From contig JBPOJN010000014.1 of the NCBI GenBank assembly GCA_052033505.1, positions 5,599 through 69,598 on the forward strand: DNA of 64,000 bases, in the 5' to 3' direction. The position numbers were made by a program, and so were the translations under genes. Shown piece after piece: positions 16,519-34,014 of the stretch. Source of the stretch: Myxococcota bacterium. GTDB lineage: Bacteria; UBA10199; JACPAL01; GCA-016699445. Position 1 is the stretch's first letter. Every line of letters starts with the position of its first letter. A model generated the notes under the pieces. That model had not been told where the DNA came from and did no database searches. It saw only the letters and a list, made by a program, of their open reading frames with translations.

Positions 16519-16545
16519 TGAACTCTAAAAATTTAGGAGAACCCT

Positions 16546-19461: not shown

Positions 19462-19791
19462 ATGATAGACATCATCATCCTCATGGTCGGCCTGGCCGCT
19501 TTAAGCCTCGGTATGGGCTATATCTTCAAGCCCCGTAAAGTCGGCAAGGCTGTTTCTTATATGCGCAAGAAACTGGAGCGCATGGAGCGCCGCCTGTCGC
19601 GTTCGCCGCGTTCGTACAAACGCACCGGATGGTCTTTTGCAGGCTTGGGTTTTATTTTGGTGTTCACCTATCTTCAGCCTATTTGGATCTACAACGCCAT
19701 CGTGCTCTTCCGCATGTCGATGGGCGTGATTTTTCCGCACATGTTTCAACAGGTCACGACCGTGCAGACCACGCCCGTCCTCTGTATTTGA
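19462..19791 (+). CDS. small two-TM membrane protein, hypothetical
   Basis: MIDIIILMVGLAALSLGMGYIF ... (basic loop) ... WSFAGLGFILVFTYLQPIWIYNAIVLF. GC-rich third codon positions. It occupies the 400-bp gap between pabB and pabC on the opposite strand. Confidence 0.35.
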   Translation: MIDIIILMVGLAALSLGMGYIFKPRKVGKAVSYMRKKLERMERRLSRSPRSYKRTGWSFAGLGFILVFTYLQPIWIYNAIVLFRMSMGVIFPHMFQQVTTVQTTPVLCI

Positions 19792-19798
19792 TTTTCGT

Positions 19799-21028
19799 TC
19801 AGTAACCCAACGCCCGCATCATCCCGCACGCTTTCACCAGCGTTTCTTCGTATTCTTTCTCCGGATCCGAATCCGCGACGATGCCGCCGCCGCTCCACAC
19901 GTGGGCCTGACCGTCCTTGATCACCATGGTGCGGATAGCGACATTGAATTGCGCACGCCCGTCGTCCCCGATGAAACCGATCGCCCCGCAATACACCTCA
20001 CGCGCGTGCGCCTCGAGCTCGCGGATGATCTGCAACGCGCGGATCTTCGGCGCTCCCGTGACGGAACCGCTGGGAAACGCCGCTTGTAGGAGATCCACAA
20101 TGTCTTTGTCCGGCGAGAGCCGGCCTTCGACGGTCGAAACGCGGTGGTGCACCTGCGCGTAGCTTTCGATCGAACCCAGATCCGTCACGCGTACGCTGCC
20201 CGGGACGCAGACGCGGCCTAAGTCGTTCCGCTCGAGATCCGTGATCATCAAAAGTTCGGCGTGGTCTTTCGGGCTCTTGGCCAATTCTTCTTTCAGTCTC
20301 CGATCTTCCTCCGGCGTTTTTCCGCGAGGCCGTGTGCCTTTGATGGGCCGCGTGACGACGCGGTCGCCGTCCACGGAGAGGAAGAGTTCGGGCGAGGCCG
20401 AAAGGATCTGGGCGTCGCCTAAATCCAAATAAGCGGAGTAGGGGGCGGGGGAGACGGATTGAAGTTTTTGAAAAATTGTTTCCGCGGGCTCGGTGACCGG
20501 AACGGTGAATTTCTGCGAAAGATTCACTTGATAACAATCACCGGCGGCGATGAGGTCTTTTACGCGCTCGACGTTTCGGATGTAGTCTTGCTTCGAAACG
20601 TTCGCATGGCCGGAAAAATCCTTCGGGAAAACGTTCTGACCTGAAGCGGACGGAAGGGAAACGGGTTCCAGCGAGATATCATCGAAATAACCGAACACGG
20701 CCTTGGGGATCAAAAGATCCGAACGCGGCGGAATTTTCGCGCCCGTTTGCATTTCATAACCTATGTAACCGATCCATCCCCTCTTGAGAGGGCTGGGGGA
20801 CGTGCCGGGCGCGCGCGTCTCCCGGACGGCATGACGCAAGTGGTCGAAGAAATTTGCGGAAGACGTTCCGTCCGCCGTTAAAATTTTTTTGGGACGGCTC
20901 GCCATCATTCGGAAGCCGTCGAAATAAAGTGAGGTTTGAACCAAGCGGGGAGACATTTTCATCCCTTTCGTAAGATCCACGAGGGAAAAATAACAACAAT
21001 ATTCCCCACATCGCCGATGAAAAGGCAT
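19799..21028 (-). CDS. pabB: aminodeoxychorismate synthase component I (chorismate-binding enzyme)
   Basis: The C-terminal chorismate-binding signature SGSVTGAPKIRALQIIRELEAHAREVYCGAIGFIGDDG is present. The size of 409 aa fits the short PabB/TrpE-like form. Confidence 0.8.
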   Translation of the reverse strand: MPFHRRCGEYCCYFSLVDLTKGMKMSPRLVQTSLYFDGFRMMASRPKKILTADGTSSANFFDHLRHAVRETRAPGTSPSPLKRGWIGYIGYEMQTGAKIPPRSDLLIPKAVFGYFDDISLEPVSLPSASGQNVFPKDFSGHANVSKQDYIRNVERVKDLIAAGDCYQVNLSQKFTVPVTEPAETIFQKLQSVSPAPYSAYLDLGDAQILSASPELFLSVDGDRVVTRPIKGTRPRGKTPEEDRRLKEELAKSPKDHAELLMITDLERNDLGRVCVPGSVRVTDLGSIESYAQVHHRVSTVEGRLSPDKDIVDLLQAAFPSGSVTGAPKIRALQIIRELEAHAREVYCGAIGFIGDDGRAQFNVAIRTMVIKDGQAHVWSGGGIVADSDPEKEYEETLVKACGMMRALGY

Positions 21029-21173
21029 GTCTTACACGGGTAGTATTTCTGCAGTCTCTGCCGTCATCGAAAGAAGCGTCACCGCGAGCGTCGATCCGAA
21101 TTCCGTCCTTCTTTTCAAGGCAAACAGCTCTCTTAAAGATTTCTCCGCGGTCTCGCCCGAAAGTTTTCATCGT

Positions 21174-21974
21174 ATGGCGTTTCACGTCCAGGGCCGCGAT
21201 CCTCGAAAAGGCGATCGCATTTGGATCCATGCCGGAGACGGCGACTGGAATAAGTACGGGATCCAAAGCCCCTCCGCAGACATCCAGCTCACGTCTCAGT
21301 TTCCTTTTTTTCACCCGAGCGATCTTGAGAAACAACCGGCCCGCTTCCCCGTGGTGACTCTCGAATACGACGGGAAAGCGTGGCACGTCGCGAAGGGTAG
21401 GGTTTGGGGACATGCGACTTTGGTCGACAAGATTTTGCAGATGCTCGAAAAATCGGACTGGCTTTCCTCCCCAGGAGCCGGAGCGAAAAATGAGAAGCAC
21501 TTCGAAATCATAAGGCCGGCACCTGCTCGAGTCGAAGCCCCCGTTGTGCCGCGATTGCACGCCGTACCGTCTCGACCCAGACGTGCGCGAAGTGTTGTCA
21601 CGGAAAAGCCAGTTTCTAAACCTTCCGCTCCGTCTGGAGAAAAAGTCTCTTATCAGGCGGTTTTAGAATCCGAGATGGTGCGCGTGTTGGGTCGAAAGCC
21701 TATGATCAATGACGTTGTCCATCTCGTTTGTGCGGCTAGGGCTCATTTTCCCCGAGGGTCCCGTGCCGCTTGGGAAATTGTGAAAAACGCTCAGGCTTTT
21801 CTCAAGGAAGATTGCCCTTGCGCCGTCGTCAAACTCGCGCGCCGTCAACTGAGTTGGGAAGCGACCCTCCTTGACCGTGGCTTCGAGCGGGACCGCAGCT
21901 TGCTCGCTCAACTCATTCAAGAGCCTTCGCTGAAGAGTTTCATTTTTACGAGGGTTCGCGTTTCCCGTCCTTGA
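21174..21974 (+). CDS. hypothetical protein
   Basis: Long ORF with GC3-rich codon usage and no recognisable motifs. The ORF-track start (21027) would overlap the divergent pabB start, so an internal Met (MAFHVQG) is preferred. Confidence 0.4.
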   Translation: MAFHVQGRDPRKGDRIWIHAGDGDWNKYGIQSPSADIQLTSQFPFFHPSDLEKQPARFPVVTLEYDGKAWHVAKGRVWGHATLVDKILQMLEKSDWLSSPGAGAKNEKHFEIIRPAPARVEAPVVPRLHAVPSRPRRARSVVTEKPVSKPSAPSGEKVSYQAVLESEMVRVLGRKPMINDVVHLVCAARAHFPRGSRAAWEIVKNAQAFLKEDCPCAVVKLARRQLSWEATLLDRGFERDRSLLAQLIQEPSLKSFIFTRVRVSRP

Positions 21975-21993
21975 GTTGCCAAAATCCGATCTT

Positions 21994-22389
21994 TTACGGA
22001 ATTCTTTTTATTCCTGGAAGCTGATCGAAGCCTTGGTCGAAGGAGAAAATGGTTTCGATCTTATATTTTTTCATTTGAGCCGCATGAAGCGCGTCCCGCG
22101 AGGAAAGCTTTTCGTAGCGGAGGACTAAGTCTTTTGCCGCCGACACGTCCGCTTCGGTGATGTCCCAAATTTTCTCGATGAAAGAATGCATTAAATCGAA
22201 GGCCGGCTGAATGAATTCTTTTCTATGGATGGCGGTGTAGCGATGGATGATTTCCTGCAGGACTTCGGCGTTGGTGACCAAGCTTTCCTTTTTTTGGATC
22301 AGTTCTTCCAGCGTCGCTTGCGTGATGCGTTTATTGGGATGGTCCGCTCCGATGAAATACATGACAATATTGGAATCCACGAAGATCAT
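21994..22389 (-). CDS. vapC: PIN-domain toxin (VapC-like)
   Basis: MIFVDSNIVMY...D (N-terminal acidic residue in the beta1 strand) and conserved downstream acidic residues. 131 aa. The 4-bp ATGA overlap with the upstream small gene is a classic TA arrangement. Confidence 0.75.
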   Translation of the reverse strand: MIFVDSNIVMYFIGADHPNKRITQATLEELIQKKESLVTNAEVLQEIIHRYTAIHRKEFIQPAFDLMHSFIEKIWDITEADVSAAKDLVLRYEKLSSRDALHAAQMKKYKIETIFSFDQGFDQLPGIKRIP

Positions 22390-22631
22390 GAGGCATAGCC
22401 TTTTTCGATCTCGGAGAGCATGTGATCGATGTCTCCCGTGGGGGCGTTGAGAGAACTGTACCGTCTAATCGCTTCCAGTTTCTCCCGAGGGCTTTTCCCG
22501 GCCTTCTCCGCGGCCAACCGGCGCAGCGCCTGCCGCACCCATTCCCCCAAACTCAGACCCGTCTCCCGGGCGATTTGCTGGAATGCTTTGTATTCTTTGG
22601 GTTCCAAGAGGACTTGGAGTCTTTTACTCAT
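22386..22631 (-). CDS. vapB: RHH/CopG-like antitoxin (VapB-like)
   Basis: 81 aa. N-terminal KRLQVLLEPKEYKAFQQIARETGLSLGEWVRQAL fits a ribbon-helix-helix beta-strand plus helix. Translationally coupled to the PIN gene. Confidence 0.65.
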   Translation of the reverse strand: MSKRLQVLLEPKEYKAFQQIARETGLSLGEWVRQALRRLAAEKAGKSPREKLEAIRRYSSLNAPTGDIDHMLSEIEKGYAS

Positions 22632-22731
22632 GTCATGAGTATATAGGACTCATGATGGTAGTCAATTAGGGTTTTCGGAGGAAGGTGGCGAAAAATGACA
22701 ACAATATCCTGCAAGCGTTCGATGAAACAGT

Positions 22732-23382
22732 ATGGGCAGCATCCGTCCCACTTCTATGTCCGCTGTGTCCCCTCTGTTGATCCCTTCTTCCGCGGTTCCG
22801 AGATCACTCGGTCTTGTGCCGCAATCGGCGTCTCCATCGATTGTGCGTGGATCGGAACGAGAGGACATTTTGTCTTTCTTGAGCGCCTGCACGGGCGTCC
22901 CAGCTGAGTTTAAAGATTCTTTCGTAGCGGCGAGAGACCAAATTCTTCAAAAAATCACCTCTTGGAGAGAAATCGAAACGCAGCGGGCGCTGGGTCTTTC
23001 ACCGCTAAAGCTCTTGGTCGACAAGGCTGTTTCCAATTGGGTGCAAGAGCAAGAAGTGAGCCGGGATTACGGGAGGTATGTGCGTTTCATGACGGGTCTC
23101 GGCAAGAGAATGTACCAGGATCGGGAAACCTTCATGAGAAGCGTCGCCGGCCCCCAAGGCGCCAGGAACACGCGCTCCCGGTTTTTGGACATCGAACGCA
23201 AAAAATTGAGAATCGGTTCCATCGTCTGTGATGCCCGTGGAAAACGGCAGGAGATCGTCGGGTTCAACGAAGACGGCCGTTTGATTTTTAAAGGGGGAAA
23301 AGGCACGTTTCTCCCCCATGATTTCAAGTTGGTCGAAGGCCCCAAACCGCAAAAGTCCGCAAAAAGTCTTAAGTCCCCGTAA
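22732..23382 (+). CDS. hypothetical protein
   Basis: ORF in a lower-GC segment with no recognisable domain. The start is uncertain. Confidence 0.3.
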   Translation: MGSIRPTSMSAVSPLLIPSSAVPRSLGLVPQSASPSIVRGSEREDILSFLSACTGVPAEFKDSFVAARDQILQKITSWREIETQRALGLSPLKLLVDKAVSNWVQEQEVSRDYGRYVRFMTGLGKRMYQDRETFMRSVAGPQGARNTRSRFLDIERKKLRIGSIVCDARGKRQEIVGFNEDGRLIFKGGKGTFLPHDFKLVEGPKPQKSAKSLKSP

Positions 23383-23482: not shown

Positions 23483-25168
23483 ATGCAAGTAAAACCGTTT
23501 TTTCCGGTGGTTCATCCGACGGGAGCCCAGCCTGTGCGGCTTTGGGTTTGTCCGGGGCAAGGATCTCAAAGTGTCGGCATGGGTCAGAAGTTGTACGACT
23601 CTTCCCGGACTTACCGCGAGACCTTCGATCGGGGACATGCGGCTCTTGTTTCAGAAGGCGTCGATTTACGGCGCTTGGCTTTCGAAGGACCCGCCGGTGA
23701 TTTGACCCGCACTCTCCACGCGCAACCTGCTTTGCTTGTTTCGAACGTAGCATTGGCGGAACACCTGCGTATCGAAGAAGGTATCGCACCGAGTCCCGGC
23801 GATCTTCTGGCGGGCCACAGTTTAGGTGAGTGGACGGCCTATACGATTTCAGGCGCATTGACGGTGGAGCAGGGAGCTTTGGCGGTTTATTGGCGTGGCC
23901 GGCTCATGGAAGAAGCTTTTCCCTTCGATCCCGCCACGCGTCCGATGACGGCTATTTTAGGATTGTCCGATCAAACTGTGATCTCGGCTTGCGCGGGAAT
24001 CAGCCGCGAAGGCCATATCGTGGTCGCCGCGAATTTCAACGCTCCGGGCCAGGTCGTCATCTCGGGCCATCCCGCCGCGGTCGCCGAAGCCTCGGATCTC
24101 TTGAAGTCCCGCGGCGCGGGCGTCAGCAACGCCTTTCCCGTCGCCGGTCCTTTCCATACGCCCATCCTCAGCGAAGCCCGCGAAAAACTAGCGGCTAAAA
24201 TCGCCGAACTCGGCATCGAATTCAGTATCCCGGAATTCCAAATCATTTCCAATTTTACGGGCCGTGAGATCGAGCCCGTGGGAGACCATCTCGGTTCTCT
24301 GTTGAACCAATTGACCGGATCCGTCCGTTGGACTGCGTCGATGGTTCGCGCTTGGGAGTTGGGAGCGGTGGAAATGGTGTCCTTGGACGTGTCGGGAAAC
24401 GTGCTGCAGGGATTCGCGAAGAAGATTTTTTCCCGTGAGAGACCGGTGCAGATCGTGGATCCGACAATATCGATGCATCAGCATGCCCTGAGGCAAGCAC
24501 CGGGTTCGATCAGTACGACCCGGTTTGCGGAAGATCCCGTACAGAAGAGAAACAACTGCTTGGAATTTTCCTACAATGCGGGCGCTATCGTTAAAATTGT
24601 CAGGAAACTTTTAAAAGAAGGCGACGTCCAAACCGCGTTGCTGGCCCTGAAAAACACTTACAATAGCGCGCGCGAAGCCGCCATGCGTGAGCTGAAATCG
24701 CATGCGGATTCCTTGGAAGTGATTCAAGCGATGAGGGAAGGCGGTTTCGTCGATGAGGCAGGCGATCTCATATGGCCCGATCCGGTCGTGCGGGATCTTG
24801 TGACTCATACGCTTCCTCCAGATAGTTTAACTGCCCTTACCCTCGGGAAAGATTCCATTTTCAGTAAGTTGGAGGCCTTGAGTCTAGCTCCTATCGACCA
24901 AGAAGACCTTATCTATTATGTCGCAAGCCGGTGGAATGGAGACGCGCAACGTCTTGAAAAAATCCTGAGTGCCCTTCGTTACCTTTTGGTCAAGGGCGAT
25001 CCTAAGAAGCACAAAAAATCCTTACTCCCGTTGATACAGTACAAAGACCAAAACGGCGAATCCCAGAAAGGCATTGATAGCTGGGAGGCCGTCATTCTGT
25101 ACGTGGATGGGGAAAAAGACGTCCAATTCCCCCATCCTGGAGCCATGAAGCAGGGAGATATTTTATGA
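23483..25168 (+). CDS. FabD-like malonyl-CoA:ACP transacylase domain protein with a 250-aa C-terminal extension
   Basis: CPGQGSQSVGMG (GQGSQ) and AGHSLGEWTA (GHSxG active-site Ser) motifs, then ...ANFNAPGQVVISG...GPFHTPIL as in FabD. A ~250-aa unknown tail follows and contains KSHADSLEVIQAM, which resembles ACP helix II (GADSLDTVEL). GAGGGGA RBS. Confidence 0.8.
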   Translation: MQVKPFFPVVHPTGAQPVRLWVCPGQGSQSVGMGQKLYDSSRTYRETFDRGHAALVSEGVDLRRLAFEGPAGDLTRTLHAQPALLVSNVALAEHLRIEEGIAPSPGDLLAGHSLGEWTAYTISGALTVEQGALAVYWRGRLMEEAFPFDPATRPMTAILGLSDQTVISACAGISREGHIVVAANFNAPGQVVISGHPAAVAEASDLLKSRGAGVSNAFPVAGPFHTPILSEAREKLAAKIAELGIEFSIPEFQIISNFTGREIEPVGDHLGSLLNQLTGSVRWTASMVRAWELGAVEMVSLDVSGNVLQGFAKKIFSRERPVQIVDPTISMHQHALRQAPGSISTTRFAEDPVQKRNNCLEFSYNAGAIVKIVRKLLKEGDVQTALLALKNTYNSAREAAMRELKSHADSLEVIQAMREGGFVDEAGDLIWPDPVVRDLVTHTLPPDSLTALTLGKDSIFSKLEALSLAPIDQEDLIYYVASRWNGDAQRLEKILSALRYLLVKGDPKKHKKSLLPLIQYKDQNGESQKGIDSWEAVILYVDGEKDVQFPHPGAMKQGDIL

Positions 25169-26844
25169 TCATGCAAGCCGGTTCGAAGTCTCCGACTCCA
25201 GGGCGCATCGCGATTGTGGGTTATGGATCTTGTAATTCCCTGGGAACCGCGGAAACGTCTTACTTAACGCGGACCGGTCGGTTCCAGGAAGCGTTGCCCG
25301 AATATGCCAGGCTCACGGGTATTACCGACAGGGATGTCATCGATCGCCGCATCGGCATTCGGGTTCCTCGCCTGGGGGATTTAGAGCAGCCGATCGATAT
25401 TCAGCGTTTTCAAGGACATCGACTGGAACGCCTTAAAGAAGATGGAACGATCAATGGCCGTACTTTACGAAAAGGCGCTGAACCTCTACTCGAACACACT
25501 TGGAAATTGCCCGTAGTCCATGCGGGTGCTTTGCCTTCCGGATGGGATTTGCTGAAAGAGGCCGGTTTTTCGGGGAAACCTTATGATCAGTTCAGTAGGG
25601 CGCATTTGATTTTGATGCGGTCTCTCGCGGAAGCCATGATCTCCATGGGCGTTCCTTGGTCCGAGATCGAGCGAAAAGTGCCCGAAAAGCAAAGAGCCGT
25701 CGCGGCTGCGTTCGGCATGGGGCCTGGAGAAGACTTATATGAAGGCATGGCTTTTCCCGCTCTCAAACGATCGGTCAGAAAAGATATAGTCGCCCGTTTT
25801 TTGCCCGATAATCCCGCTTATTGGCTCCAAAAAATATTAAAAGCCCGCCATGCCTCTTCGCGGGTCGCGGCCTGTAATACGGGTATCGCCAATCTTGAAT
25901 TCGCGTTTCTGGCCATGAAAGCGGGAATGGCCCGCTTCTACGCGGTCGCCTCCGCGGATTCCCTGCTTAATGAGATAGCGATCGTGGATTTCAACGCGCA
26001 AAAAGCTTTAGCCACGGATTTGTCCGTATCCAATCTCATGGATCATCCCAGCTTGGTTTCTCGACCCGGTACCACGGATCGTTCGGGTTTCGTCTTGGCC
26101 GAAGGCGGGGGCGTTCTTCTCTTGATGGAGGAAACTTTGGCTTTCGAGACCGGGGCCATTATTTACGCCTATCTGGACGGCGTTGCCACGGCTACCGGCC
26201 AGTCCAAGTCTCAAGATCCGGCAGCGCCTACCGACGGCGGCATTCTTTCTATGACGAACGGCCTTGAAATGGCCGCGGCTTCCTGCGGGATGACTGAAGA
26301 AGAATACGTCCAATTTTTGACCGTGATCAATGCCCACGGCACTTCCACACCCGCGGGAGATGAGAACGGAATGGCGGGTTACGATAGAGTTTTAAGGGAA
26401 AAAAGACGTGATCCCAGATCTCCCGTGTTTGTCGTTTACGGTAAGGGAGGCCCTCGTTTGGATGGTATTCCTAGCGCGAGACGGGTGGGTAACGGAGGCA
26501 CGGGACATTCATTGGGAGGAGCGTCCTTGGTCGCAGCGGTCGAGACGATCCAAATGCACCGTTACGGAATCATTCCTCCTTCCGTTGGAAGTTTAGATAG
26601 CGTCGATCCTAGAATCTTGGAATCCGCTCATCTTTTGTATCCAACTCAACCATTGAGTGAGAACGTCGTGAAGGCTCAAACTAGCGCCCAAGGATTCGGT
26701 GACAGCAACGGAGATATGTTCACCAGCCAAAATCCGGATCATGGAACCCAAAATCCCGAAGCGGTCGCCAGACGTGACCGATGGACGGAAGAAGTGAAGT
26801 CAGGGCAAAAGAAGCCGGCGGAGTTCGTGCCGGTGATTGAGTAA
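25165..26844 (+). CDS. beta-ketoacyl synthase (KS) family protein, divergent
   Basis: KS motifs: RIAIVGYGSCNSLG at the N-terminus, active-site Cys237 in VAACNTG (TGT at 25873-25875), DRSGFVLAEGGGVLLL, His in INAHGTSTPAGD, and GHSLGGAS. About 70 extra residues lie N-terminal to the Cys compared with FabF. The start overlaps the upstream stop (ATGA). Confidence 0.75.
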   Translation: MIMQAGSKSPTPGRIAIVGYGSCNSLGTAETSYLTRTGRFQEALPEYARLTGITDRDVIDRRIGIRVPRLGDLEQPIDIQRFQGHRLERLKEDGTINGRTLRKGAEPLLEHTWKLPVVHAGALPSGWDLLKEAGFSGKPYDQFSRAHLILMRSLAEAMISMGVPWSEIERKVPEKQRAVAAAFGMGPGEDLYEGMAFPALKRSVRKDIVARFLPDNPAYWLQKILKARHASSRVAACNTGIANLEFAFLAMKAGMARFYAVASADSLLNEIAIVDFNAQKALATDLSVSNLMDHPSLVSRPGTTDRSGFVLAEGGGVLLLMEETLAFETGAIIYAYLDGVATATGQSKSQDPAAPTDGGILSMTNGLEMAAASCGMTEEEYVQFLTVINAHGTSTPAGDENGMAGYDRVLREKRRDPRSPVFVVYGKGGPRLDGIPSARRVGNGGTGHSLGGASLVAAVETIQMHRYGIIPPSVGSLDSVDPRILESAHLLYPTQPLSENVVKAQTSAQGFGDSNGDMFTSQNPDHGTQNPEAVARRDRWTEEVKSGQKKPAEFVPVIE

Positions 26845-26872
26845 GAAAATAATTTTCATCGAAAGGTCGATT

Positions 26873-28753
26873 ATGAAATTAGCGAATATCCCCGCGAGTC
26901 AAGTTTTGGTGACGGTTGGAAGCGGTTGCATGATCTCGGCCGCCGGCACCACGGAGTCCCATCGCGCCGCCAGTATCGGACATCCTGCGATGATCGGTTT
27001 CGCGGCTTTCGACGCGCGTTTGGTCGACATCGATCCTGCGAGCAAAGTGGAAGCGCCTATTTTTTTACGAAGAGGTGGAGACGACGCGGGCCAGCCGATT
27101 TCGCTCGATGAAATCAATGCGCGGTGGGGAACGCGCCTCCGTGAGGACATGGGCAGTCGTTTCCTGTCCAAAAATTTCGTGGCCGCCCACGTGCCCACGG
27201 ACATAGGCGCTCCGCTCGCGCACCGCTTGGAGCGCGGTTCGGAAGAGGGTGGTTTAAGGGAAAGAGCCGGACTGACGTTCAAGGATCTCCGCGCCTCGCC
27301 TCTGTCCGATATGGGATTGTTATTCGAAGACGATCCGCGTTTGGGCCCAAGCCTCCAGGCCCAGATGTTTTTGTACGCGGGCCTCGGCGCCCTGTCCGCA
27401 CTGCCGCTGCCTCTTTCGCGGATTTTACCGGATGCTTACCGCTTCCGCGTCTCGGCCTCCACGTGTTTTCCGGGCAATGATTCTTGGGAAAGTTTATCGC
27501 AGAGCCTGCAAACCGGATCCGTGCGCGACAAGGCGGCCTATCGTTTGGCGTCGGCTTTGAATACGCATGGACCGGCGCTTTTGAATACTATGCTGTCCCC
27601 GTCTTTTCCGCTGTCCTCGACCAAAAGGGCCATGGAGCGGGATCCCGAATATTTGACAAAAATTTTGGTGAATGACTCGTCTCAGTCGCTTTTAAGGAAC
27701 GTCCCTCAAGCTCCATTGGTCTCCAGCGCCGCGTGTTCCAGCGCCCTCGTTAATTTCTGCGATATCGCCCCGCATCTACAACTAGCTGCGACGGGCAGAC
27801 GTGGATCGCCTCAAGTGGTGTTGTGGACTTCGGCCGACGCTTCTTTAGGGCCCGACGCTAGAATTTTAGAAGGATTCGGTCCCGCCGCCATGATGACGGG
27901 TCAGAAATTGAAAGCGGACCGTAGCATTTCGCAAGCGCTCGCGCCTTTCGACGTCGATGCGAGCGGCACGATCGTCGGTCACGCGGGGTACGGCATTTTG
28001 ATCACGACCCTCGAATTCGCACTGAGGAATTTTTTGGACATCACTTCCATCATCGTCGGCTGGGGACAAAGCGGAGAGACCGGAGGCAAAGGTCATTTCG
28101 CGGGCGTGGGTTACGGCGGCGAAAATGCGATCATCCTTTCGCTCATGATGGCTTTTGAGGAGCATGGCTACGGCGTCAACGATTTCGATCATCTCATCGC
28201 TCATGCCACGGGCACGAAGACGAATTCCAAAACCGATCTTGGCACTGTCCATGACGCACGGAGAGCCGTCGCACAAATGCAGGGCTACACGGAGGCGTTA
28301 CGGCGCATGACCGTCGGGGCTCCCAAAGCGGCGAATCCAGGCCCCGTCCATCCCATGGGCCCTGCGGGCCACTTGGCGACCGATCAAGGAAACCAATATT
28401 TGATGGGCCGCCCCACGGTCGGGATCCCGAACTTGCGTCAAATCGACCCGGAATTGGCCGCAGAAGCGCAGCATTTCGAGCTATCGAGCGCTGCAATAGC
28501 GGGTAAGGAAGACGGTGGAGAGATTTCTCCCGTACAAGGCTTCGGTGGTTACGTGGCGGCCATGGCGCGTCGCTCCGCCCATGCTGACGCTTTCCGGCGT
28601 TATCCTATCAGCGACTCGAAATTGATCGATGCTTATTTGGAACGCCAAACCGACATTCGCCAGGCGCGTGAACGATCGGAAGCCGATTATGATCGGACCA
28701 TGGGATCCACTTTAGCCCAAGCCGTGCAACATCGCTGGTCCGGTGCGAAATAA
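26873..28753 (+). CDS. second KS-family protein (KS/CLF-like partner)
   Basis: SSAACSSALVNF (TGT at 27734-27736) matches the canonical KS DTACSSSL context. DASGTIVGHAGYGILITTLE and IAHATGTKTNSKTD resemble EAHGTGT. The third His motif is degenerate. Start chosen at ATG 26873 after a GAAAGG RBS; the ORF track uses TTG 26837, overlapping the upstream stop. Confidence 0.65.
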   Translation: MKLANIPASQVLVTVGSGCMISAAGTTESHRAASIGHPAMIGFAAFDARLVDIDPASKVEAPIFLRRGGDDAGQPISLDEINARWGTRLREDMGSRFLSKNFVAAHVPTDIGAPLAHRLERGSEEGGLRERAGLTFKDLRASPLSDMGLLFEDDPRLGPSLQAQMFLYAGLGALSALPLPLSRILPDAYRFRVSASTCFPGNDSWESLSQSLQTGSVRDKAAYRLASALNTHGPALLNTMLSPSFPLSSTKRAMERDPEYLTKILVNDSSQSLLRNVPQAPLVSSAACSSALVNFCDIAPHLQLAATGRRGSPQVVLWTSADASLGPDARILEGFGPAAMMTGQKLKADRSISQALAPFDVDASGTIVGHAGYGILITTLEFALRNFLDITSIIVGWGQSGETGGKGHFAGVGYGGENAIILSLMMAFEEHGYGVNDFDHLIAHATGTKTNSKTDLGTVHDARRAVAQMQGYTEALRRMTVGAPKAANPGPVHPMGPAGHLATDQGNQYLMGRPTVGIPNLRQIDPELAAEAQHFELSSAAIAGKEDGGEISPVQGFGGYVAAMARRSAHADAFRRYPISDSKLIDAYLERQTDIRQARERSEADYDRTMGSTLAQAVQHRWSGAK

Positions 28754-28772
28754 AATTTAAGGAAACTTCATT

Positions 28773-30917
28773 ATGCCCATCACCCTCGAAAAACCCGTTG
28801 GAAAAGGTGCCCTGATTTTTGGAGCGCATCCTTTAGGCATGAAAGCGGTCGCGGATCGTTCGATTTGGAGCGCGCAACGAGAACTGCCGCATCCCATCGC
28901 GGGAGCCCAGGGCAAGACGGCCTTGATCATCGGCAGTACATCGCCGGGTTATGGAAGCGCCACGGCGCTTGCGTTGCGCGCGGCGGGTTTCGGGAAGATC
29001 ATCGGGATCGGTTATGAACGTCCACCGACCCTTGATAAGAACTTCCGTGCATCGCCGGGCTGGTATCTCACGCGACACCTGCATGAAGCCGGCATCATCG
29101 ATCGTACGTATTTCGCCGATGCCTTCGCCGACGACACGCGCCGACGCGTGATGCGGGATATGGTCGCGAACGACGAGCGCATTGACCTCATGGTTTACAG
29201 CCTGGCCGCGGGCACGCGTTCGTATGGCACACAGAAATGGAATTCTTCGCTGAAAGTCATCGGGGAATCTTTGGACGTGACGGCGCTCGATTACAATATG
29301 TTGGACTACAAAGGCGTCAAATTGAAACCGGCGCGCATCGAAGCCGCGACGGAGGAGCAGATTGCCCACACTGTGAAAGTCATGGGGGGAGAGGATTTAA
29401 GTTTTTGGGTGGGCGCTTTGTTCATGAGCGGCCGCCTCAATCCTGGCGCGTTCATAACGTCGCGCAGTTATATCGGTCCTGAGGGGTTACTCGATTTAAG
29501 GCGCATTTATCGGGACGGTAGCATCGGTGCGTCCAAGAAAGATAATGAACGCGTGACGCGTGAATGGGACGCACGCCTTCGCGACATCGACGTCCGCGCG
29601 TTGGCGGAAGTCGACCCGGCCGTCGTGACGATAGCCTCCGCCCAGATTCCCGCGATCGCGAAATACCTCGCGGCCTACCTCGGCGTCGCCGATGGCGGAG
29701 CGAAGATTTATCGCGATCCCATCGGAGTTTCCGTGGATCTCGTGCGCGCTTTGTATGGTCAGGGCGAGCCCTGGAAGAATCTTTTGGATGACGAAGGCCG
29801 GCTGCGTCTCGATGGTCACGAAATGCAGGAAGCCCTACAAGCCTCCATCTTGGAGCAGTGGAATGCCAACAACCAACCTGGTGAGCCTACGGAAACTTTG
29901 AAAGAAGGGTTGGATCGTTACCGCGAGAACTATTTAGGACTTTTCGGTTTCGGTTTGCCGGAAGTGGACTACTCGAAACCTTTTGAGCTGGATACGACGC
30001 TCGCCGGCGGTATCGTGGATTTGCTTTCAGAACCCATGCCGACTCCGATCGTGATTCCCGCGGCGCGCGAACCCCAACCGGAAATTACGTCCGCGCCCGA
30101 AGTAAAAGTCACCGCCGTTGGGGCCTTCTTCGATGCCTTACTGTCTCGAGACAACGAACCCGGGGTTATGGCCCAATCGGAAGGCGATAAAAAAGTTTTC
30201 GTCTCACAATATTCTCTGAATCCCAGTACGATTCGCCGTTATGTGGCGGCAACGCAGCAGCCGCAGGATGGAAACGTGCCGTCGGCCTTTACGTTCGTCA
30301 TGGCGTTCCCGAATATTTTGGACGCAATCAAAGACGTTTTGAGAACGGCCGCCATTAAGTCCGTCGTGCATGCGGCGGAAGAAGTGACGATGTTGGCGCC
30401 GATTCCGGCCGACGGGTCGGTGACGGTGCGTGCGTGGCTCGCCAAAAAAGTCGGAAAAGGCCCCGTAGTTACGATCGTACAGCGTGAGCTCGTGGGATCG
30501 GACGGAACGCTGTTGGCGACGGGAAAGACCACTTTGGCGGTCGGCGGCGATCTTTCCGCCCTTCCGGCCGTACTGGCGAAACCCGAAGATTCTGCGGGGG
30601 AACTCCTTAGTCGCATTCACGTCGACCAAAGCTTGATCGATATTTACAGCAAGGCGAGCGAGGATACCAATCCCATCCATATTTCGGAAGAAGCGGCGAA
30701 AGCCTTGGGTCTTTCTTCGACGATCGCCCATGGCATGCTGACTTTGGGACTCGCGAACCGCGATAATCCTTCTAACTATACCGCCAAATGGAAGACCCCG
30801 GTTCAAGCCGGAGACACAGTGGAATTCCGACGCATGGACGACAATAAAATCGTCGGCGTCATCGCGCGCGGTGGACAAATGTTCCTCGCGATCGAATTGA
30901 CCAAAAAATCTTCTTAG
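28773..30917 (+). CDS. fusion protein: FabV/Ter-type trans-2-enoyl reductase (N) + MaoC-like hot-dog dehydratase (C)
   Basis: Residues 1-400 align motif-by-motif with FabV: HPLGMKAV, LIIGSTSPGYGSATALA, VYSLAAGTRSYGT, TVKVMGGEDLSFWVGALFMSGRL, YIGPEGLLDLRRIYRDGSIGASKKD, EGRLRLD and YLGLFGFGLPEVDYSKP. The C-terminal 230 aa carry the MaoC/hot-dog signature DTNPIHISEEAAKALGLSSTIAHGM. Confidence 0.8.
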   Translation: MPITLEKPVGKGALIFGAHPLGMKAVADRSIWSAQRELPHPIAGAQGKTALIIGSTSPGYGSATALALRAAGFGKIIGIGYERPPTLDKNFRASPGWYLTRHLHEAGIIDRTYFADAFADDTRRRVMRDMVANDERIDLMVYSLAAGTRSYGTQKWNSSLKVIGESLDVTALDYNMLDYKGVKLKPARIEAATEEQIAHTVKVMGGEDLSFWVGALFMSGRLNPGAFITSRSYIGPEGLLDLRRIYRDGSIGASKKDNERVTREWDARLRDIDVRALAEVDPAVVTIASAQIPAIAKYLAAYLGVADGGAKIYRDPIGVSVDLVRALYGQGEPWKNLLDDEGRLRLDGHEMQEALQASILEQWNANNQPGEPTETLKEGLDRYRENYLGLFGFGLPEVDYSKPFELDTTLAGGIVDLLSEPMPTPIVIPAAREPQPEITSAPEVKVTAVGAFFDALLSRDNEPGVMAQSEGDKKVFVSQYSLNPSTIRRYVAATQQPQDGNVPSAFTFVMAFPNILDAIKDVLRTAAIKSVVHAAEEVTMLAPIPADGSVTVRAWLAKKVGKGPVVTIVQRELVGSDGTLLATGKTTLAVGGDLSALPAVLAKPEDSAGELLSRIHVDQSLIDIYSKASEDTNPIHISEEAAKALGLSSTIAHGMLTLGLANRDNPSNYTAKWKTPVQAGDTVEFRRMDDNKIVGVIARGGQMFLAIELTKKSS

Positions 30918-30966: not shown

Positions 30967-32397
30967 ATGGCGATTGATCTTCCTCGGGTGCGGCTTAGCG
31001 ATTTAGTTCATGCGGCGAGTCAGTATGTTGTTCCCGCCGTGTCCCGGCGCGCGGTTTCCTTGCGTCACAACCTGGTTTCCGGTGCGGATAGCCTGGCGCA
31101 ATCCATTGACCGCCGTTTTCGGGATCGCTTGGAGGGGCGGGCGCGGACTTTCGCAGAAAGAGCGCTTGGATTCGATTTCCGCGATTCCGTTCCGTTCGTT
31201 CCGCGTACGGTCGAAAAACTCTTGGGCTCCGAACATACGGCCTACAACGTCTTAGGGCTCGCGCAAACGATGGTCGATATCGCGGCGTCGCTCATGCACT
31301 ATGCTTCGATCGTGGGCGTGCGGGAATTCATGCAAGCCTACAAGACGGTCGGCAGTTCCCTCGACCGTTTATCCGTCCATCCGGAATTCGCGCCATACGC
31401 GCAGTTGCATTACCAGCATTGGATCGAGGATTACGCGAAGATCCACGGTCTTTCCGTACGCTTCGAAAACACAGAGCTCGTCCCTCAGGAAGGACCCGCG
31501 GTTTATGCGGTTTTTTGCCATTCCAGTATCTTTCCCGATTTCTTCCTGCCCTATCTCGACCCGCGCGGAGCCTTCGTGGCGGACGCGTACAATTTCCGCG
31601 ACAATCCCGTCAGCCGCCGTTTCGGGTTCAGTTTGATGGGCGACTTGTTCGGGCAGCCCTTGGTCGACCGCAAGGATCCGGCGCGAAACGAGAAATTGTT
31701 CGATCACATCATCGACGTCTCCGCACGTCACGGCATACGGCCGATTTGGTTCCCCAACGGCACGCGCGTCCCGCGTGCGTGGAAAGACGATGGGACGCTG
31801 GACCGCGCCGGTTTTTACTCCAGCGCGCCGAACGCGAAAAATGCGAAACATTACCTGCAAGCCGGGGGCGTGGCGGTAAACGCCGTGCGTTTGGCTAAAA
31901 AAGTGGGACGGACGGTAAAGGTGGTCGTGGTCACCATTCAAGGTCCGGAATACGTCATGCCGAAGAGCGCCGGGAAGCCGCCTTTCATTCAGCCCACGCG
32001 TCTTCGCGGGGACATCGTGCACCGTTTCGTCCAGGTCATCGAAGTCTCCCCGGACAGCAAAGAGAGACAGGTCATTACGGATTTGGGCCGCAATCTGCAT
32101 CTGCAGGCCAAGGCGGATCTAGGAATCGATGAGTACCTCGTCGAATGCGTCGGTCGCTGGAGCGGCAGCGAGCAAAAAGCAAAAGCCTTCGCTGAAAAAG
32201 CCAAGAATGGAAAAGGCGAGATTTGGTTCATCCTCGCCGACCGTATTCGCGCCATCCATCCATCACTCCCGGAGCGGGCGCAGTTCATCCAGCGACTTCT
32301 GGAAGCGGTCGATATTTTGAACCCCAACGGAGCCTTGGATACGCTTCTCGAAGAAGTCACCGCCTTCATGATGAAACACCAATTCGACGCGCATTGA
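30967..32397 (+). CDS. putative PlsC/LPLAT-superfamily acyltransferase (divergent)
   Basis: FPNGTRV resembles acyltransferase motif III (FPEGTR), followed by a hydrophobic KVVVVTIQGP block (motif IV-like). The candidate motif I is CHSSIFPD, which is HX5D rather than the canonical HX4D. It sits 49 bp downstream of the ER-DH gene. Confidence 0.45.
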   Translation: MAIDLPRVRLSDLVHAASQYVVPAVSRRAVSLRHNLVSGADSLAQSIDRRFRDRLEGRARTFAERALGFDFRDSVPFVPRTVEKLLGSEHTAYNVLGLAQTMVDIAASLMHYASIVGVREFMQAYKTVGSSLDRLSVHPEFAPYAQLHYQHWIEDYAKIHGLSVRFENTELVPQEGPAVYAVFCHSSIFPDFFLPYLDPRGAFVADAYNFRDNPVSRRFGFSLMGDLFGQPLVDRKDPARNEKLFDHIIDVSARHGIRPIWFPNGTRVPRAWKDDGTLDRAGFYSSAPNAKNAKHYLQAGGVAVNAVRLAKKVGRTVKVVVVTIQGPEYVMPKSAGKPPFIQPTRLRGDIVHRFVQVIEVSPDSKERQVITDLGRNLHLQAKADLGIDEYLVECVGRWSGSEQKAKAFAEKAKNGKGEIWFILADRIRAIHPSLPERAQFIQRLLEAVDILNPNGALDTLLEEVTAFMMKHQFDAH

Positions 32398-32517: not shown

Positions 32518-33255
32518 TTGATTTTATTCATTATGCCCATTGAGCCCATCCAGAGTGGTCTTCAGTCCAGCATCTCTTTGCCGCCGTCCCGCGTGATTTG
32601 GACGGGGACGGACGCCGCCTCGCGCGTGTCTTCGAAGCATTTCGGGGAAGCGATTCCGGATGTGGCGGACATTCGGGCGAATCCCGCGCTCTTGGAGATG
32701 TTCGGACGTTTGGGCGTACTCGAGAGGCTCCGCCGGAAATTGAATACGTTATCGCGGAAGCGGGCGCGCCTCGTGCCGGGCAAGAAGACCGTCGCGTGCG
32801 CGTTGCGCGCCTGTGAGGAGACGGATTTCGAGGACGTGATTTTCGCGGGCGTGGAGTTCGCGGAGGAATACCGCGGCGAAGAAGATACGATGGCGGGCGT
32901 CCTCGCGCACGAGTACGGCCACCTGCTCTCGGACTGGACGAAGGGTTTGAATCCCGACGCCATGACCTGGGAGGAAATTTTCGAGAGGCGTAAGGAAGAA
33001 GAGGCCGCGGCCGACGGTTACGCTGGGAAAATGCTCTTCCAGATGGGTTATTCGCCCGAGGGCATGGTGAAATTCTTGAAGAAGATCCAGAAGAAGGAAT
33101 GCCTCAAATACCACTCGCCGTCCACGCGCGAGGCCATCATCCGCCGTGCGTTCTCCGAAGCGCACCGCAAACAAAATCAAATGGTCAATCTCCGTTCGAT
33201 GTTCTCCGGCATCGCCTCCAATCCCTTCACGGCCAAACTCATCGCAGTGGCGTAA
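32518..33255 (+). CDS. putative zinc metalloprotease (HEXXH)
   Basis: VLAHEYGHLLSDW contains HEYGH (32908-32922) in a small 245-aa protein. No other family features were resolved. Confidence 0.4.
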   Translation: MILFIMPIEPIQSGLQSSISLPPSRVIWTGTDAASRVSSKHFGEAIPDVADIRANPALLEMFGRLGVLERLRRKLNTLSRKRARLVPGKKTVACALRACEETDFEDVIFAGVEFAEEYRGEEDTMAGVLAHEYGHLLSDWTKGLNPDAMTWEEIFERRKEEEAAADGYAGKMLFQMGYSPEGMVKFLKKIQKKECLKYHSPSTREAIIRRAFSEAHRKQNQMVNLRSMFSGIASNPFTAKLIAVA

Positions 33256-33282
33256 CGGTTCGTTTTTAGGTAAGCCGCGGCC

Positions 33283-34014
33283 ATGCGGCTTTTTTCAAAA
33301 ATTCCCATTTTATTTTTATTGGTTTTCTGGGGCGCTTGCGGCGCTTCGGACCCCGTTCCTGCGCCTGTGCCCACGCAGGTCATCGATGCGACCACGGTAG
33401 GTGGAATCCAGGGCGTCGTTTCGTTCGCGGGGACGCCTCCATCCGCGGCGAAAATCCCGGTCGCGAGTTTTTCGGAATGCGGCAATCCGTCCGGTATCGA
33501 TACCGATATCTTGATTCAAAATGGCAAAGTCAAAAACGCCTTCGTGGCGATCACGAAAGGTTTGGAAAATTACCGGTTCGAGAAGACTTCGGAAGAAGTC
33601 ATGATCGATCAGCGTCATTGCCTCTATGAACCGCGCGTGATCGGGCTCCAAGTCGGTCAGACCTTGGTCGTGAAAAACAGCGATCCGGCCCTGCATAATA
33701 TCCACGCGCAGCCGCTACAGTCGCGGGGTTTTAATGTCGGCATGCCCCGGCAAGCCTCCGATATCCGCAAGACTTTCGAAGTACCTGAGGTGATGATTCC
33801 CCTGCGCTGCGACGTGCACCCCTGGATGCGGGCTTATGCGGGCATCCTGCCTCATCCTTATTTTTCGGTGACCGGTGACGACGGAAGCTTCCGCCTGAAG
33901 AACGTCCCGCCCGGGGATTATATCGTGACCGTGTGGCACGAAAAATTGGGCAAAAAAGAATTCCCGATATCGGTGGGCGCCCGCGAAGAGAAGACGCTGG
34001 AAGTTTCGTTTTGA
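33283..34014 (+). CDS. cupredoxin-like (type-1 copper) lipoprotein
   Basis: Lipoprotein signal MRLFSKIPILFLLVFWGACGAS. The C-terminal RCDVHPWM (33808-33828) matches the Cys-x2-His-x2-Met ligand loop of amicyanin/pseudoazurin-type blue copper proteins (CTPHPFM). A candidate upstream His is in ALHNIHAQP. Confidence 0.5.
   Translation: MRLFSKIPILFLLVFWGACGASDPVPAPVPTQVIDATTVGGIQGVVSFAGTPPSAAKIPVASFSECGNPSGIDTDILIQNGKVKNAFVAITKGLENYRFEKTSEEVMIDQRHCLYEPRVIGLQVGQTLVVKNSDPALHNIHAQPLQSRGFNVGMPRQASDIRKTFEVPEVMIPLRCDVHPWMRAYAGILPHPYFSVTGDDGSFRLKNVPPGDYIVTVWHEKLGKKEFPISVGAREEKTLEVSF

Follow-up and report, generated by a model that had tools for sequence, protein, structure and literature searches.

A single polypeptide with predicted FabV-like enoyl reductase and double hot-dog dehydratase domains in a conserved orphan gene cluster of uncultivated bacteria

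The ER-DH gene and its reductase domain

The window, i.e., the whole 64,000-nt stretch of contig JBPOJN010000014.1 that was analysed, contains a single ORF of 714 amino acids (28773..30917, stop codon included), which starts with ATG in the ORF listing and is referred to here as ER-DH, for an enoyl reductase (ER) followed by a dehydratase (DH); this gene and all other features of the window given below with coordinates lie on the plus strand. Direct reading of the sequence indicates a Shine–Dalgarno motif AAGGAA (28759..28764) located 8 nt ahead of the ATG, and the stop codon of the preceding gene, KS2, occupies positions 28751–28753, leaving 19 nt between this stop and the ER-DH start. The reading frame is unbroken throughout the ORF, and a Pfam search with the 714-aa protein found four domains, each exceeding the gathering score; the ORF and these domains confirm the original prediction of a FabV-type reductase joined to a MaoC-type dehydratase on one polypeptide. 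AlphaFold2 (AF2) modelling of the protein gave a mean pLDDT of 90.7, with an uncertain relative orientation of the ER and DH parts (pTM 0.64).

The N-terminal part (residues 7–412, 28791..30008) was assigned as a FabV/TER-like enoyl-thioester reductase domain using Pfam, phmmer searches against the PDB and Foldseek. It contains the Pfam regions Eno-Rase_NADH_b (PF12242; residues 7–86, 30.4 bits at a cut-off of 23.4), Enoyl_reductase (PF12241; residues 93–305, E-value 1.6e-43, 149.2 bits at a cut-off of 22.1) and Eno-Rase_FAD_bd (PF07055; residues 338–402, 50.3 bits at a cut-off of 25). The phmmer search matched the domain to the FabV of P. aeruginosa with an E-value of 4.6e-45; the AF2 model, in which the pLDDT across this domain is about 90 or more, showed a Foldseek target TM-score of 0.90 to the FabV of Y. 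pestis and of 0.86–0.91 across 21 FabV/TER chains. The nucleotide-binding loop G54-S-T-S-P-G-Y-G-S62 (28932..28958) aligns with the GSSTGYG loop of FabV, and its residues G54, G59, Y60 and G61 do not vary among the ten fused proteins, ER-DH included. In the phmmer alignment with P. aeruginosa FabV, the catalytic pair Tyr246-X8-Lys255 (29508..29537), the second active-site tyrosine Y233 (29469–29471) and K256 correspond to Y235/K244, Y225 and K245, respectively; Y233, Y246 and K255 are conserved in 10/10 fused proteins, and nine or more of them share K256, so the catalytic Tyr/Lys, whose absence had been named as a possible objection, is present and invariant.

The naming of this domain requires some caution. 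The regions, the fold and the catalytic residues of FabV/TER are all there, in agreement with the label given in the original prediction, but the NCBIfam models for the FabV equivalog (NF043048) and subfamily (NF010177) gave only 196.8 and 242 bits, below the respective cut-offs of 400 and 403, and the domain is therefore called FabV-like rather than FabV. Identity to canonical FabV is 33–36%; in the tree of ER domains, canonical FabV was split from the ER-DH clade in 100/100 bootstraps, and the ER domains of the fused proteins clustered with unfused proteins of the Myxococcota type, away from canonical FabV. As judged from these comparisons, the domain belongs to a separate, FabV-like subfamily and is not callable as a FabV orthologue; since the score is so far under the FabV cut-off, its substrate specificity may differ from that of FabV.

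The linker and the dehydratase domain

A linker of ~90 aa had been supposed to follow the reductase. In the AF2 model it is much shorter; the sole segment of ER-DH with a pLDDT below 50 is a Pro-rich, disordered stretch of ~24 aa (residues 422–445, 30036..30107), variable in both length and sequence across the homologues, and residues 446 to ~600 fold as the first hot-dog unit. The hot-dog fold with a MaoC signature predicted behind the reductase is thus present, but as a double hot dog of ~270 aa and not as a single one. AF2 secondary structure and alignment with HtdX indicate a first, putatively non-catalytic unit (residues 446 to about 600, 30108..30572), and a Pfam match and Foldseek indicate a second, putatively catalytic unit (residues about 601–714, 30573..30914). 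The match to MaoC_dehydratas (PF01575) covers residues 614–671 (E-value 9.5e-13, 48.3 bits at a cut-off of 27), and the DH region also matches PF13452. The phmmer search against the PDB aligned residues 472–660 to the double hot-dog dehydratase HtdX, and Foldseek found a target TM-score of 0.80 to its structure (PDB code 3wew).

The hydratase-2 motif D631-T-N-P-I-H636 ... H653-G654 (30663..30737), defined by conservation in fused and stand-alone proteins, lies in the second unit. It corresponds to the MaoC signature DTNPIHISEEAAKALGLSSTIAHGM (residues 631–655, nt 30663–30737), which the original prediction had located to within 3 nt. D631, N633, H636, H653 and G654 are found in 10/10 fused proteins and in about 40 of the 41 stand-alone double hot dogs; P634 is kept in seven of the ten fused proteins. 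The nearest stand-alone relatives of this domain share 26–40% identity with it (E-values from 1e-7 to 1e-19). In the first hot dog, H533 and E536 were considered as a second active site, and this assignment was rejected, H533 being a family-wide residue that occurs in 39/41 stand-alone double hot-dog proteins; position 536 is Glu in the fused family and Gln or Asn in the stand-alone proteins. Taken together, the model and the sequence comparisons indicate that residues 446–714 form a complete double hot dog of the HtdX/hydratase-2 type, of which only the C-terminal unit is predicted to be catalytic.

Conservation of the fusion and of the gene cluster

Nine other fused ER-DH proteins, 716–784 aa long, were found; the assemblies that contain them, from JGI, Logan, ENA and NCBI, are independent of one another. 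The identity of their ER domains to that of ER-DH is 52–63% for P0002–P0007 and 35–48% for P0127, P0128 and P0137; over the full length, P0002–P0006 are 55–61% identical to ER-DH. The architecture is very rare, with about ten fused proteins among some 15 billion, and a literature search found no description of a fusion of the FabV–MaoC type; to our knowledge, FabV-class enoyl reductases and hydratase-2 dehydratases of bacteria are always separate proteins. The original statement that FabV/TER enzymes are normally stand-alone proteins of about 400 aa holds for 113 of the 120 best matches, which are 392–482 aa long and contain FabV domains only. Scans of GTDB genomes with single-protein patterns gave no match, and alignment-based patterns retrieved only unfused genes of Myxococcota; a metagenome scan added one further fused locus, L015, which matches L011 in type. 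No stop codon or split was seen in the related genomes: separate ER and DH genes occurred in 0/25 loci, and neither a DH gene nor a relic of one was seen downstream of the unfused relatives at the loci examined. The ER-DH fusion is a real gene product architecture and not an artefact; its parts are known, but their combination in one domain architecture is new.

ER-DH lies in a tightly packed group of genes. The first of them (23483..25168) encodes a FabD-like malonyl-CoA:ACP transacylase (AT; residues 21–328), assigned using Pfam (Acyl_transf_1), the PDB (FabD matches with an E-value of 1e-45) and NCBIfam (fabD, 211.7 bits), with a C-terminal extension of ~230 aa. It is followed by a ketosynthase (KS) of the FAS-I/FabY type (25165..26844) with an invariant triad Cys237-His391-His448; its PDB matches are headed by the KS domains of fungal FAS alpha and of mycobacterial FAS-I, with FabY (4cw4) next. 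The next gene, KS2 (26837..28753), encodes a highly divergent ketosynthase-like protein without a Pfam match and with only weak similarity to FabF; its triad Cys300-His456-His505 is invariant in seven homologues, and no other protein of the cluster is as well conserved, its identity to the copy in the related locus L001 being 78%. The true start of KS2 is probably the ATG at 26873.

Directly downstream of ER-DH, in the window as well as in relatives, a gene (30967..32397) encodes a 476-aa protein designated X, which adjoins the 3′ side of ER-DH in the window and in L001, L004, L005 and L013, and is cut by the contig end in L006. The invariant residues of X include H185-x5-D191, N209-F-R211 and W-F-x-N-G-x-R267, and from its sequence X is possibly a divergent acyltransferase of the GPAT/PlsC type; treating it as a proven acyltransferase was not upheld, the match to the Pfam Acyltransferase model (E-value 0.0063) being below the cut-off and a profile search against the PDB giving no match. 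A single-sequence AF2 model of X has a pLDDT of 37.7, too low to be of use for this assignment. Further downstream (32518..34014), synteny and Pfam define genes for a 245-aa protein with an HExxH motif (AHEYGH) and a 243-aa protein with a CarboxypepD_reg domain, both conserved in L001, L004 and L005. The packing from AT to X is operon-like, with overlaps of 4 and 8 nt (ORFs as listed) followed by gaps of 19 and 49 nt; no convincing internal terminators were seen in the cluster, scans for promoters and terminators stayed at chance level, and the 64-kb window contains no tRNA. A comparison of GltB gave best named matches at 78% that are annotated simply as 'bacterium', and matches at 72–74% from a mixture of phyla.

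Most of the fused genes, including that of the window, belong to a conserved cluster comprising the FabD-like AT, the FAS-I/FabY-type KS, KS2, ER-DH and X, which is syntenic in L001, L004 and L005/L006 (the AT gene in L001, L004 and L005) and rearranged in L013 and L014. A homologous SDR of ~340 aa is encoded beside or near ER-DH in all fused lineages but that of the window, and accessory genes encode an IlvA-like PALP and an AHL-lactonase-like MBL, with a BioF/Spt-type enzyme in L014. The SDR, PALP and MBL genes have been lost from the window copy of the cluster; no remnants of MBL, PALP or KR were found within the window. ER-DH is hence a hallmark of a conserved orphan cluster rather than an isolated curiosity, and the cluster itself, which is rare and previously undescribed, is predicted to build a lipid in uncultivated bacteria. 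The loci L011, L012 and L015, which make up a third of the fused lineages, have a different layout: ER-DH is flanked by two SDR genes, a thiolase gene lies about 9 kb upstream, and KS, AT and ACP are absent from the vicinity. Since KS and AT are missing there, the ER-DH module does not seem to be bound to one pathway.

Proposed function and comparison with known systems

The domain composition and the gene neighbourhood suggest that ER-DH is likely to be a bifunctional (3R)-hydroxyacyl dehydratase and NADH-dependent enoyl reductase that finishes elongation rounds in a dedicated semi-dissociated synthase of fatty acids or reduced polyketides, encoded by the surrounding genes. The FabD-like transacylase would load malonyl units, the FAS-I/FabY-type KS and the second, orphan KS would carry out condensation, and the ~340-aa SDR, which the relatives possess and the window lacks, would reduce the 3-keto group. 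ER-DH would then complete every round: its C-terminal double hot dog (Asp631, His636) would remove water from the (3R)-hydroxyacyl thioester, giving the trans-2-enoyl thioester, and the N-terminal FabV-like domain (Tyr246, Lys255 and the NADH loop), joined to it by the flexible linker of ~24 aa, would reduce the latter to the saturated acyl thioester; the finished chain would probably be handed on by protein X. The benefit that we infer for the fusion is a 1:1 stoichiometry of the two activities and a near-irreversible reduction placed beside a reversible, unfavourable dehydration, which would pull the cycle forward. Heath and Rock (J Biol Chem, 1995) reportedly found that the dehydratase step of type II FAS is reversible and that the enoyl reductase drives each elongation cycle to completion. 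The idea of an elongation cycle, put forward in the original prediction, fits the neighbourhood, which comprises the AT and two KS, with a KR gene added in the relatives and an ACP gene in one of them.

The nature of the carrier is the point at which this proposal meets its main alternative. Next to X, L013 contains a probable ACP gene (Pfam PP-binding match; 63.5 bits, compared with NCBIfam ACP cut-offs of 66–71). Searches by tblastn with this ACP and the ACP of E. coli revealed none in the window, L001, L004 or L005, for which a housekeeping ACP, or CoA, must consequently be assumed. An ACP hidden in the AT extension ('LGKDSI') was also considered and rejected, as the Ser is replaced by Gln or Pro in L004 and L005. 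The same bifunctional chemistry could in principle act on CoA thioesters, in a CoA-dependent, reverse beta-oxidation-like elongation or in hydroxy-acid salvage rather than in an ACP-based synthase. The reductase family includes the trans-2-enoyl-CoA reductases (TER), enzymes of the HtdX and hydratase-2 types take CoA substrates, and the absence of an ACP gene from four loci and the thiolase-associated layout of L011, L012 and L015 would agree with such a role, as would the CoA-dependent FAS of Sulfolobus, with its MaoC-type (R)-dehydratase and separate enoyl-CoA reductase (10.1101/2024.07.05.601840). Against this stand the FabD-like malonyl-CoA:ACP transacylase and the pair of ketosynthases with Cys-His-His triads, all normally dependent on a carrier protein, and the probable ACP beside X in L013; the CoA-based pathway is accordingly considered rather unlikely, and ACP is favoured as the carrier on the grounds of the FabD-like AT and the L013 gene.

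It is far less probable that just one half of ER-DH is catalytic in vivo, with the hot-dog part used mainly to bind a substrate or carrier or to form dimers, or with the ER reducing another double bond of a specialised metabolite. Such a role might be read into the divergence of the reductase subfamily from canonical FabV, the E536 specific to the fused family and the unusual accessory genes (the IlvA-like PALP, the AHL-lactonase-like MBL and the BioF/Spt-type enzyme of L014), but all catalytic residues of both halves are invariant at an ER-domain identity of only 35–63%, which is unexpected for a degenerate domain, and the clusters contain no second DH or ER gene to fill the missing step. A missed stop codon or frameshift that merged two neighbouring genes, suggested by nothing other than the rarity of the architecture, can practically be dismissed, given the continuous frame, the nine independently assembled fused proteins, the lack of loci with the two genes apart or with a DH trace behind unfused relatives, and a first hot dog that starts only about 24 residues past the end of the ER.

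Returning to the bifunctional enzyme in an elongation cycle, the cluster permits a broader, tentative proposal, which we regard as possible: ER-DH might mark an undescribed self-contained acyl-chain synthase that makes a new lipid or acyl signal and whose organisation lies between that of the dissociated type II FAS and that of the microbial type I FAS, and the fusion might be ancestral to the FabV-like subfamily, the unfused Myxococcota enzymes having later lost the DH. The parts of such a synthase would be KS, KS2, the AT with its 230-aa extension, the ~340-aa KR, ER-DH and X. ER-DH is of wider interest as a conserved natural fusion in which a reversible dehydration would be coupled to a pulling reduction outside the megasynthases, and as a possible compact part covering two steps at once in engineered pathways (reverse beta-oxidation or FAS), where TER and PhaJ-type enzymes are already in use as separate parts. 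The orphan cluster combines a FAS-I-like KS with a strongly conserved KS-like protein barely recognised by current domain libraries; it may inform the origin of type I FAS architectures and points to a lipid of uncultivated lineages.

Among known systems, FabV and TER (Y. pestis FabV, 3zu3; T. denticola TER, 4fbg) share with ER-DH the three Pfam regions, the fold, the Tyr-X8-Lys pair with the second Tyr and the glycine-rich NADH loop, but they are stand-alone proteins of ~400 aa, whereas ER-DH has 290 additional C-terminal residues, comprising the linker and the double hot dog. HtdX (Rv0241c), a double hot-dog enzyme of the hydratase-2/MaoC type, has the same plan, in which the N-terminal half is non-catalytic and catalysis is left to the C-terminal half with its D-x-N-P-x-H...HG motif; identity in the structural alignment is 17–20%, and the DH of ER-DH differs in being covalently joined to a reductase. 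The CoA-dependent FAS of Sulfolobus acidocaldarius is a non-canonical FAS in which an enoyl-thioester reductase likewise acts after a MaoC-type dehydratase with (R)-specificity, but these are separate proteins, the reductase is of the MDR type, and condensation is performed by a thiolase/DUF35 complex with no KS, AT or ACP (10.1101/2024.07.05.601840).

The peroxisomal multifunctional enzyme type 2 (MFE-2, D-bifunctional protein) and the MFE-2-like bacterial SDR–SCP2–hydratase-2 proteins P0181 and P0212 combine an N-terminal Rossmann-type oxidoreductase with a double hot-dog hydratase 2 and follow the same logic, in which one protein carries out two successive reactions of a 3R-hydroxyacyl/enoyl thioester. 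Of the top 40 Foldseek matches, MFE-2 (3oml) alone is a two-domain protein solved at full length, albeit with an rmsd of 27.8, and P0181 and P0212, both carrying adh_short and SCP2, surfaced in the search with the DH. The oxidoreductase of MFE-2 is, however, a classical SDR 3-hydroxyacyl-CoA dehydrogenase of ~250 aa, unlike the FabV-type enoyl reductase of ER-DH; MFE-2 carries out hydration and oxidation in degradation, whereas dehydration and enoyl reduction are predicted for ER-DH, which gave no Pfam match to adh_short or SCP2 and does not contain the SCP2 domain.

The ER of FAS-I is an FMN-dependent TIM barrel and does not have the FabV/SDR fold. The DH of FAS-I is a triple hot dog, in contrast to the double one of ER-DH, and in the window the AT, KS, KS2 and X are encoded by separate ORFs with no megasynthase scaffold in the cluster. 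Despite these differences, the microbial type I FAS (fungal beta subunit, AT-ER-DH-MPT; mycobacterial and corynebacterial FAS-I) resemble ER-DH in placing an ER ahead of a DH in one chain and in the hydratase-2/FAS1_DH type of the DH (PF13452, PF01575, and Foldseek matches to M. tuberculosis FAS-I), and the KS of the cluster is most similar to the KS domains of FAS-I.

Domain architecture of the fused protein

The ER-DH gene, a 714-aa ORF on the forward strand at positions 28773–30917 as originally delimited, carries a ribosome-binding site (AAGGAA) 8 nt ahead of its ATG, which lies 19 nt from the stop codon of the preceding gene. Pfam searches clearly indicate that a FabV-type reductase (ER) and a MaoC-type dehydratase (DH) are really joined in a single polypeptide, far beyond chance. 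All the domains score above the gathering thresholds, including the three FabV/TER-defining regions, PF12242 (residues 7–86), PF12241 (residues 93–305, E-value 1.6e-43) and PF07055 (residues 338–402), and the MaoC dehydratase domain (residues 614–671, E-value 9.5e-13). The motif DTNPIH...AHGM occupies residues 631–655 (nt 30663–30737, forward strand).

The original prediction placed a linker of about 90 aa and one hot-dog domain after the reductase, and this part had to be corrected. A phmmer search against PDB sequences aligned the double hot-dog dehydratase HtdX (Rv0241c) to residues 472–660, and the AlphaFold 2 model, built from 37 input sequences, has a mean pLDDT of 90.7, with values below 50 only at residues 422–445; the first hot-dog unit comprises residues 446–~600 and the second one, bearing the catalytic motif, residues ~601–714. 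Foldseek searches showed the similarity of the N-terminal domain to 21 FabV/TER chains (target TM-score 0.86–0.91) and of the C-terminal part to HtdX (0.80), with MFE-2 hydratase-2 domains and the mycobacterial FAS-I DH ranking next. Taken together, the phmmer, AlphaFold 2 and Foldseek results lead to a predicted layout of a reductase of ~412 aa, a Pro-rich linker of ~24 aa and a double hot-dog dehydratase of ~270 aa; the pTM score of the model is 0.64 and the domain-to-domain geometry is not fixed by it.

Residues Y233, Y246, K255 and K256 align with Y225, Y235, K244 and K245 of Pseudomonas aeruginosa FabV (PDB code 8rcz), Y246 and K255 corresponding to the Tyr-X8-Lys active site. Y233, Y246 and K255, as well as the glycine-rich loop G54–S62, are invariant or nearly so across all ten fused proteins, so the condition that would have refuted the original prediction, a lack of the catalytic Tyr/Lys pair, does not hold. 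In the dehydratase, no fused protein departs from D631, N633, H636, H653 and G654, and about 40 of the 41 stand-alone double hot dogs keep these residues.

Distribution and relationships of the fused proteins

A search of 5.8 billion clusters revealed six more fused proteins (P0002–P0007, 716–784 aa) with ER domains 52–63% identical to that of the query. When 1.84 billion representatives were searched exhaustively by HMMER with the DH half alone, three further divergent ones were found (P0127, P0128 and P0137; ER domain identity 35–48%), and Pfam confirmed both FabV and MaoC regions in them. The fused proteins come from JGI, Logan, ENA and NCBI assemblies. In 25 fetched loci, the DH-like matches are all located immediately after the ER part, within one called fused gene (recognised in L015 solely by tblastn and the ORF listing), and the unfused loci of this set contain neither a related DH gene nor its relic in the available sequence, up to 10 kb downstream. 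A frameshift artefact joining two genes is excluded: no split version occurs in the 25 loci and nine other homologues are fused. The FabV-MaoC architecture is very rare, about ten proteins among some 15 billion, a figure that covers the related DH type, since a DH-based search would give no high rank to FabV joined with a hot-dog domain of unrelated type. Full-text literature searching found no description of such a fusion.

The reductase agrees with the FabV/TER family in the fold, the defining regions and the active site, but ER-DH reaches only 242 and 197 bits with the NCBIfam FabV models (cut-offs 403 and 400), and its ER domain is 33–36% identical to canonical FabV. Judging from these comparisons, the reductase is FabV-like, FabV in a loose sense and no FabV equivalog. 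Neighbour-joining analysis of the ER domain (390 columns, 100 bootstraps) groups the fused proteins with unfused ones of ~418 aa from Myxococcota-type MAGs and separates them all from canonical FabV in 100/100 replicates. The unfused set forms a clade in 100/100 replicates; the fused proteins do so in just 3/100, since the unfused clade falls inside their group, and the internal nodes are weakly supported (43–51). Perhaps the fusion is older than the unfused clade, which would have lost DH later, or else it occurred more than once.

The gene cluster in the window and in relatives

ER-DH is a member of a conserved orphan cluster, a tightly packed row of forward-strand genes in the order AT, KS, KS2, ER-DH, X. 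The FabD-like acyltransferase AT (23483–25168, +; E-value 1e-45 to PDB FabD, 212 bits to NCBIfam fabD) is followed by the ketosynthase KS (25165–26844, +), whose closest counterparts of solved structure are KS domains from fungal FAS alpha and from mycobacterial FAS-I; FabF-type KS II rank next, FabY (4cw4) was also matched, and residues C237, H391 and H448 are invariant. The second ketosynthase-like protein KS2 (26837–28753, +) has no Pfam match and shows a weak similarity to FabF (E-value at the 1e-7 level). KS2 retains the Cys-His-His triad (C300, H456, H505) and is the best-conserved cluster protein, with 78% identity to its L001 counterpart versus 55–65% for its neighbours; its N-terminal region (~260 aa) has no detectable relatives. 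The 476-aa protein X (30967–32397, +) has no PDB match and a sub-threshold match to Pfam acyltransferase; its invariant motifs H-x5-D, N-F-R and W-F-x-N-G-x-R are reminiscent of GPAT/PlsC motifs I–III. Residues ~330–561 of AT form a conserved C-terminal extension (~230 aa) without detectable homology, which the L014 AT (348 aa) lacks; the ACP-like motif LGKDSI within the extension is not conserved and was ruled out as a sign of an ACP.

The same gene order surrounds P0002 (L001), P0003 (L005/L006) and P0005 (L004), where an AttM/AiiA-like metallo-beta-lactamase-fold gene, a 655-aa PLP enzyme with a threonine/serine ammonia-lyase core and an SDR of ~337 aa, the presumed ketoreductase, lie upstream of AT. 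The window contains none of these three genes, nor their remnants; their position (21027–23382) is occupied by two ORFs of 315 and 216 aa, with no Pfam match and no homologue in the other fetched loci, and by a PIN/RHH toxin-antitoxin pair (21994–22631, −). Since the SDR gene is absent from the window, the organism must draw its ketoreductase from elsewhere, or else the cluster is incomplete. Locus L013 contains KS, KS2, ER-DH, X, a probable ACP (63.5 bits, slightly under the NCBIfam cut-offs of 66–71) and SDR; L014 contains AT, a BioF/serine-palmitoyltransferase-family enzyme, KS, ER-DH and SDR, interspersed with toxin-antitoxin and nucleotidyltransferase genes. In L011, L012 and L015, ER-DH lies between two SDR copies, with nothing else of the cluster. 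The paralogous SDR genes (~355 aa) on both sides and the lack of KS and AT nearby in the high-GC lineage (L011, 8902–13279; L015, 4425–8802) suggest the reuse of the module in another, possibly CoA-dependent, pathway. The ~340-aa SDRs are mutually homologous across all the fused loci outside the window; the unfused relatives reside in housekeeping neighbourhoods unrelated to the cluster.

Divergently upstream of the cluster are PabB-like chorismate-binding and PabC-like class IV aminotransferase genes (18561–21028, −), the former holding the same place in L001, L004 and L005; this chorismate-binding gene may be a pathway member, e.g., supplying an aromatic starter, or represent mere conserved synteny. 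Downstream of X, a conserved 245-aa protein (32518–33255, +) with an HExxH motif (AHEYGH) and a sub-threshold Peptidase_M48 match is syntenic in L001, L004 and L005. The GltB of the organism is most similar to that of MAGs labelled simply 'bacterium'. Elsewhere, four consecutive large ORFs without Pfam matches (1075, 899, 335 and 661 aa; 42564–51607, −), preceded by an HTH_38/HTH_32 protein gene (41423–42427) and a second PIN-domain gene (40687–41181), may be an acquired island; GC content there is ~0.50 versus 0.55–0.59, GC skew +0.09 to +0.10 and AT skew −0.12 to −0.15. Several large repeat-protein genes (51861–55313, 56232–58316, 14413–18594 and 11181–12803, all +) suggest an elaborate cell surface; one product (1150 aa) contains 22 thrombospondin type-3 repeats, and the others include a TSP_3 protein of 694 aa, two Chlam_PMP/beta-helix proteins and a DUF4215 protein.

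Proposed function and comparison with known systems

The most economical reading is that the cluster encodes a dedicated acyl-chain synthase. AT would load malonyl units, the two Cys-His-His ketosynthases would initiate and lengthen the chain, and the SDR would yield a (3R)-hydroxyacyl intermediate, which the double hot dog would dehydrate; the FabV-like domain would reduce the enoyl product with NADH, and X may pass on the finished chain. For ER-DH, ACP-bound substrates are the favoured option, given a FabD-like AT, the KS chemistry and, in L013, a probable ACP gene; CoA substrates are possible, above all in the SDR-flanked loci. In FAS II, dehydration is reversible and unfavourable, and the enoyl reductase pulls the reaction forward. 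From this established enzymology we infer a kinetic rationale for the fusion, where covalent 1:1 pairing would make the pull of the reductase on dehydration local. ER-DH would gain in importance should the surrounding cluster turn out to be a fatty-acid or polyketide synthase of a new kind.

The central idea of the original prediction, a reductase-dehydratase fusion, is upheld, and ER-DH is a new domain architecture assembled from known catalytic modules. In the reduction step it resembles FabV/TER, not being a FabV equivalog, and in the dehydration step HtdX and hydratase 2. The closest analogue in overall design is MFE-2, bacterial versions of which (P0181 and P0212) were among the DH-search matches; it joins an SDR to a double hot-dog hydratase 2, and the two catalyse successive steps, but these are hydration and alcohol oxidation, and its SDR is classical, unlike the FabV-like reductase of ER-DH. 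Microbial type I FAS likewise places ER ahead of DH in a single chain, its DH is of the hydratase-2 type and its KS is similar to that of the cluster, but its ER is an FMN TIM barrel; in the archaeal CoA-dependent FAS, the MaoC dehydratase and the enoyl reductase are separate proteins, whereas in ER-DH they are fused.
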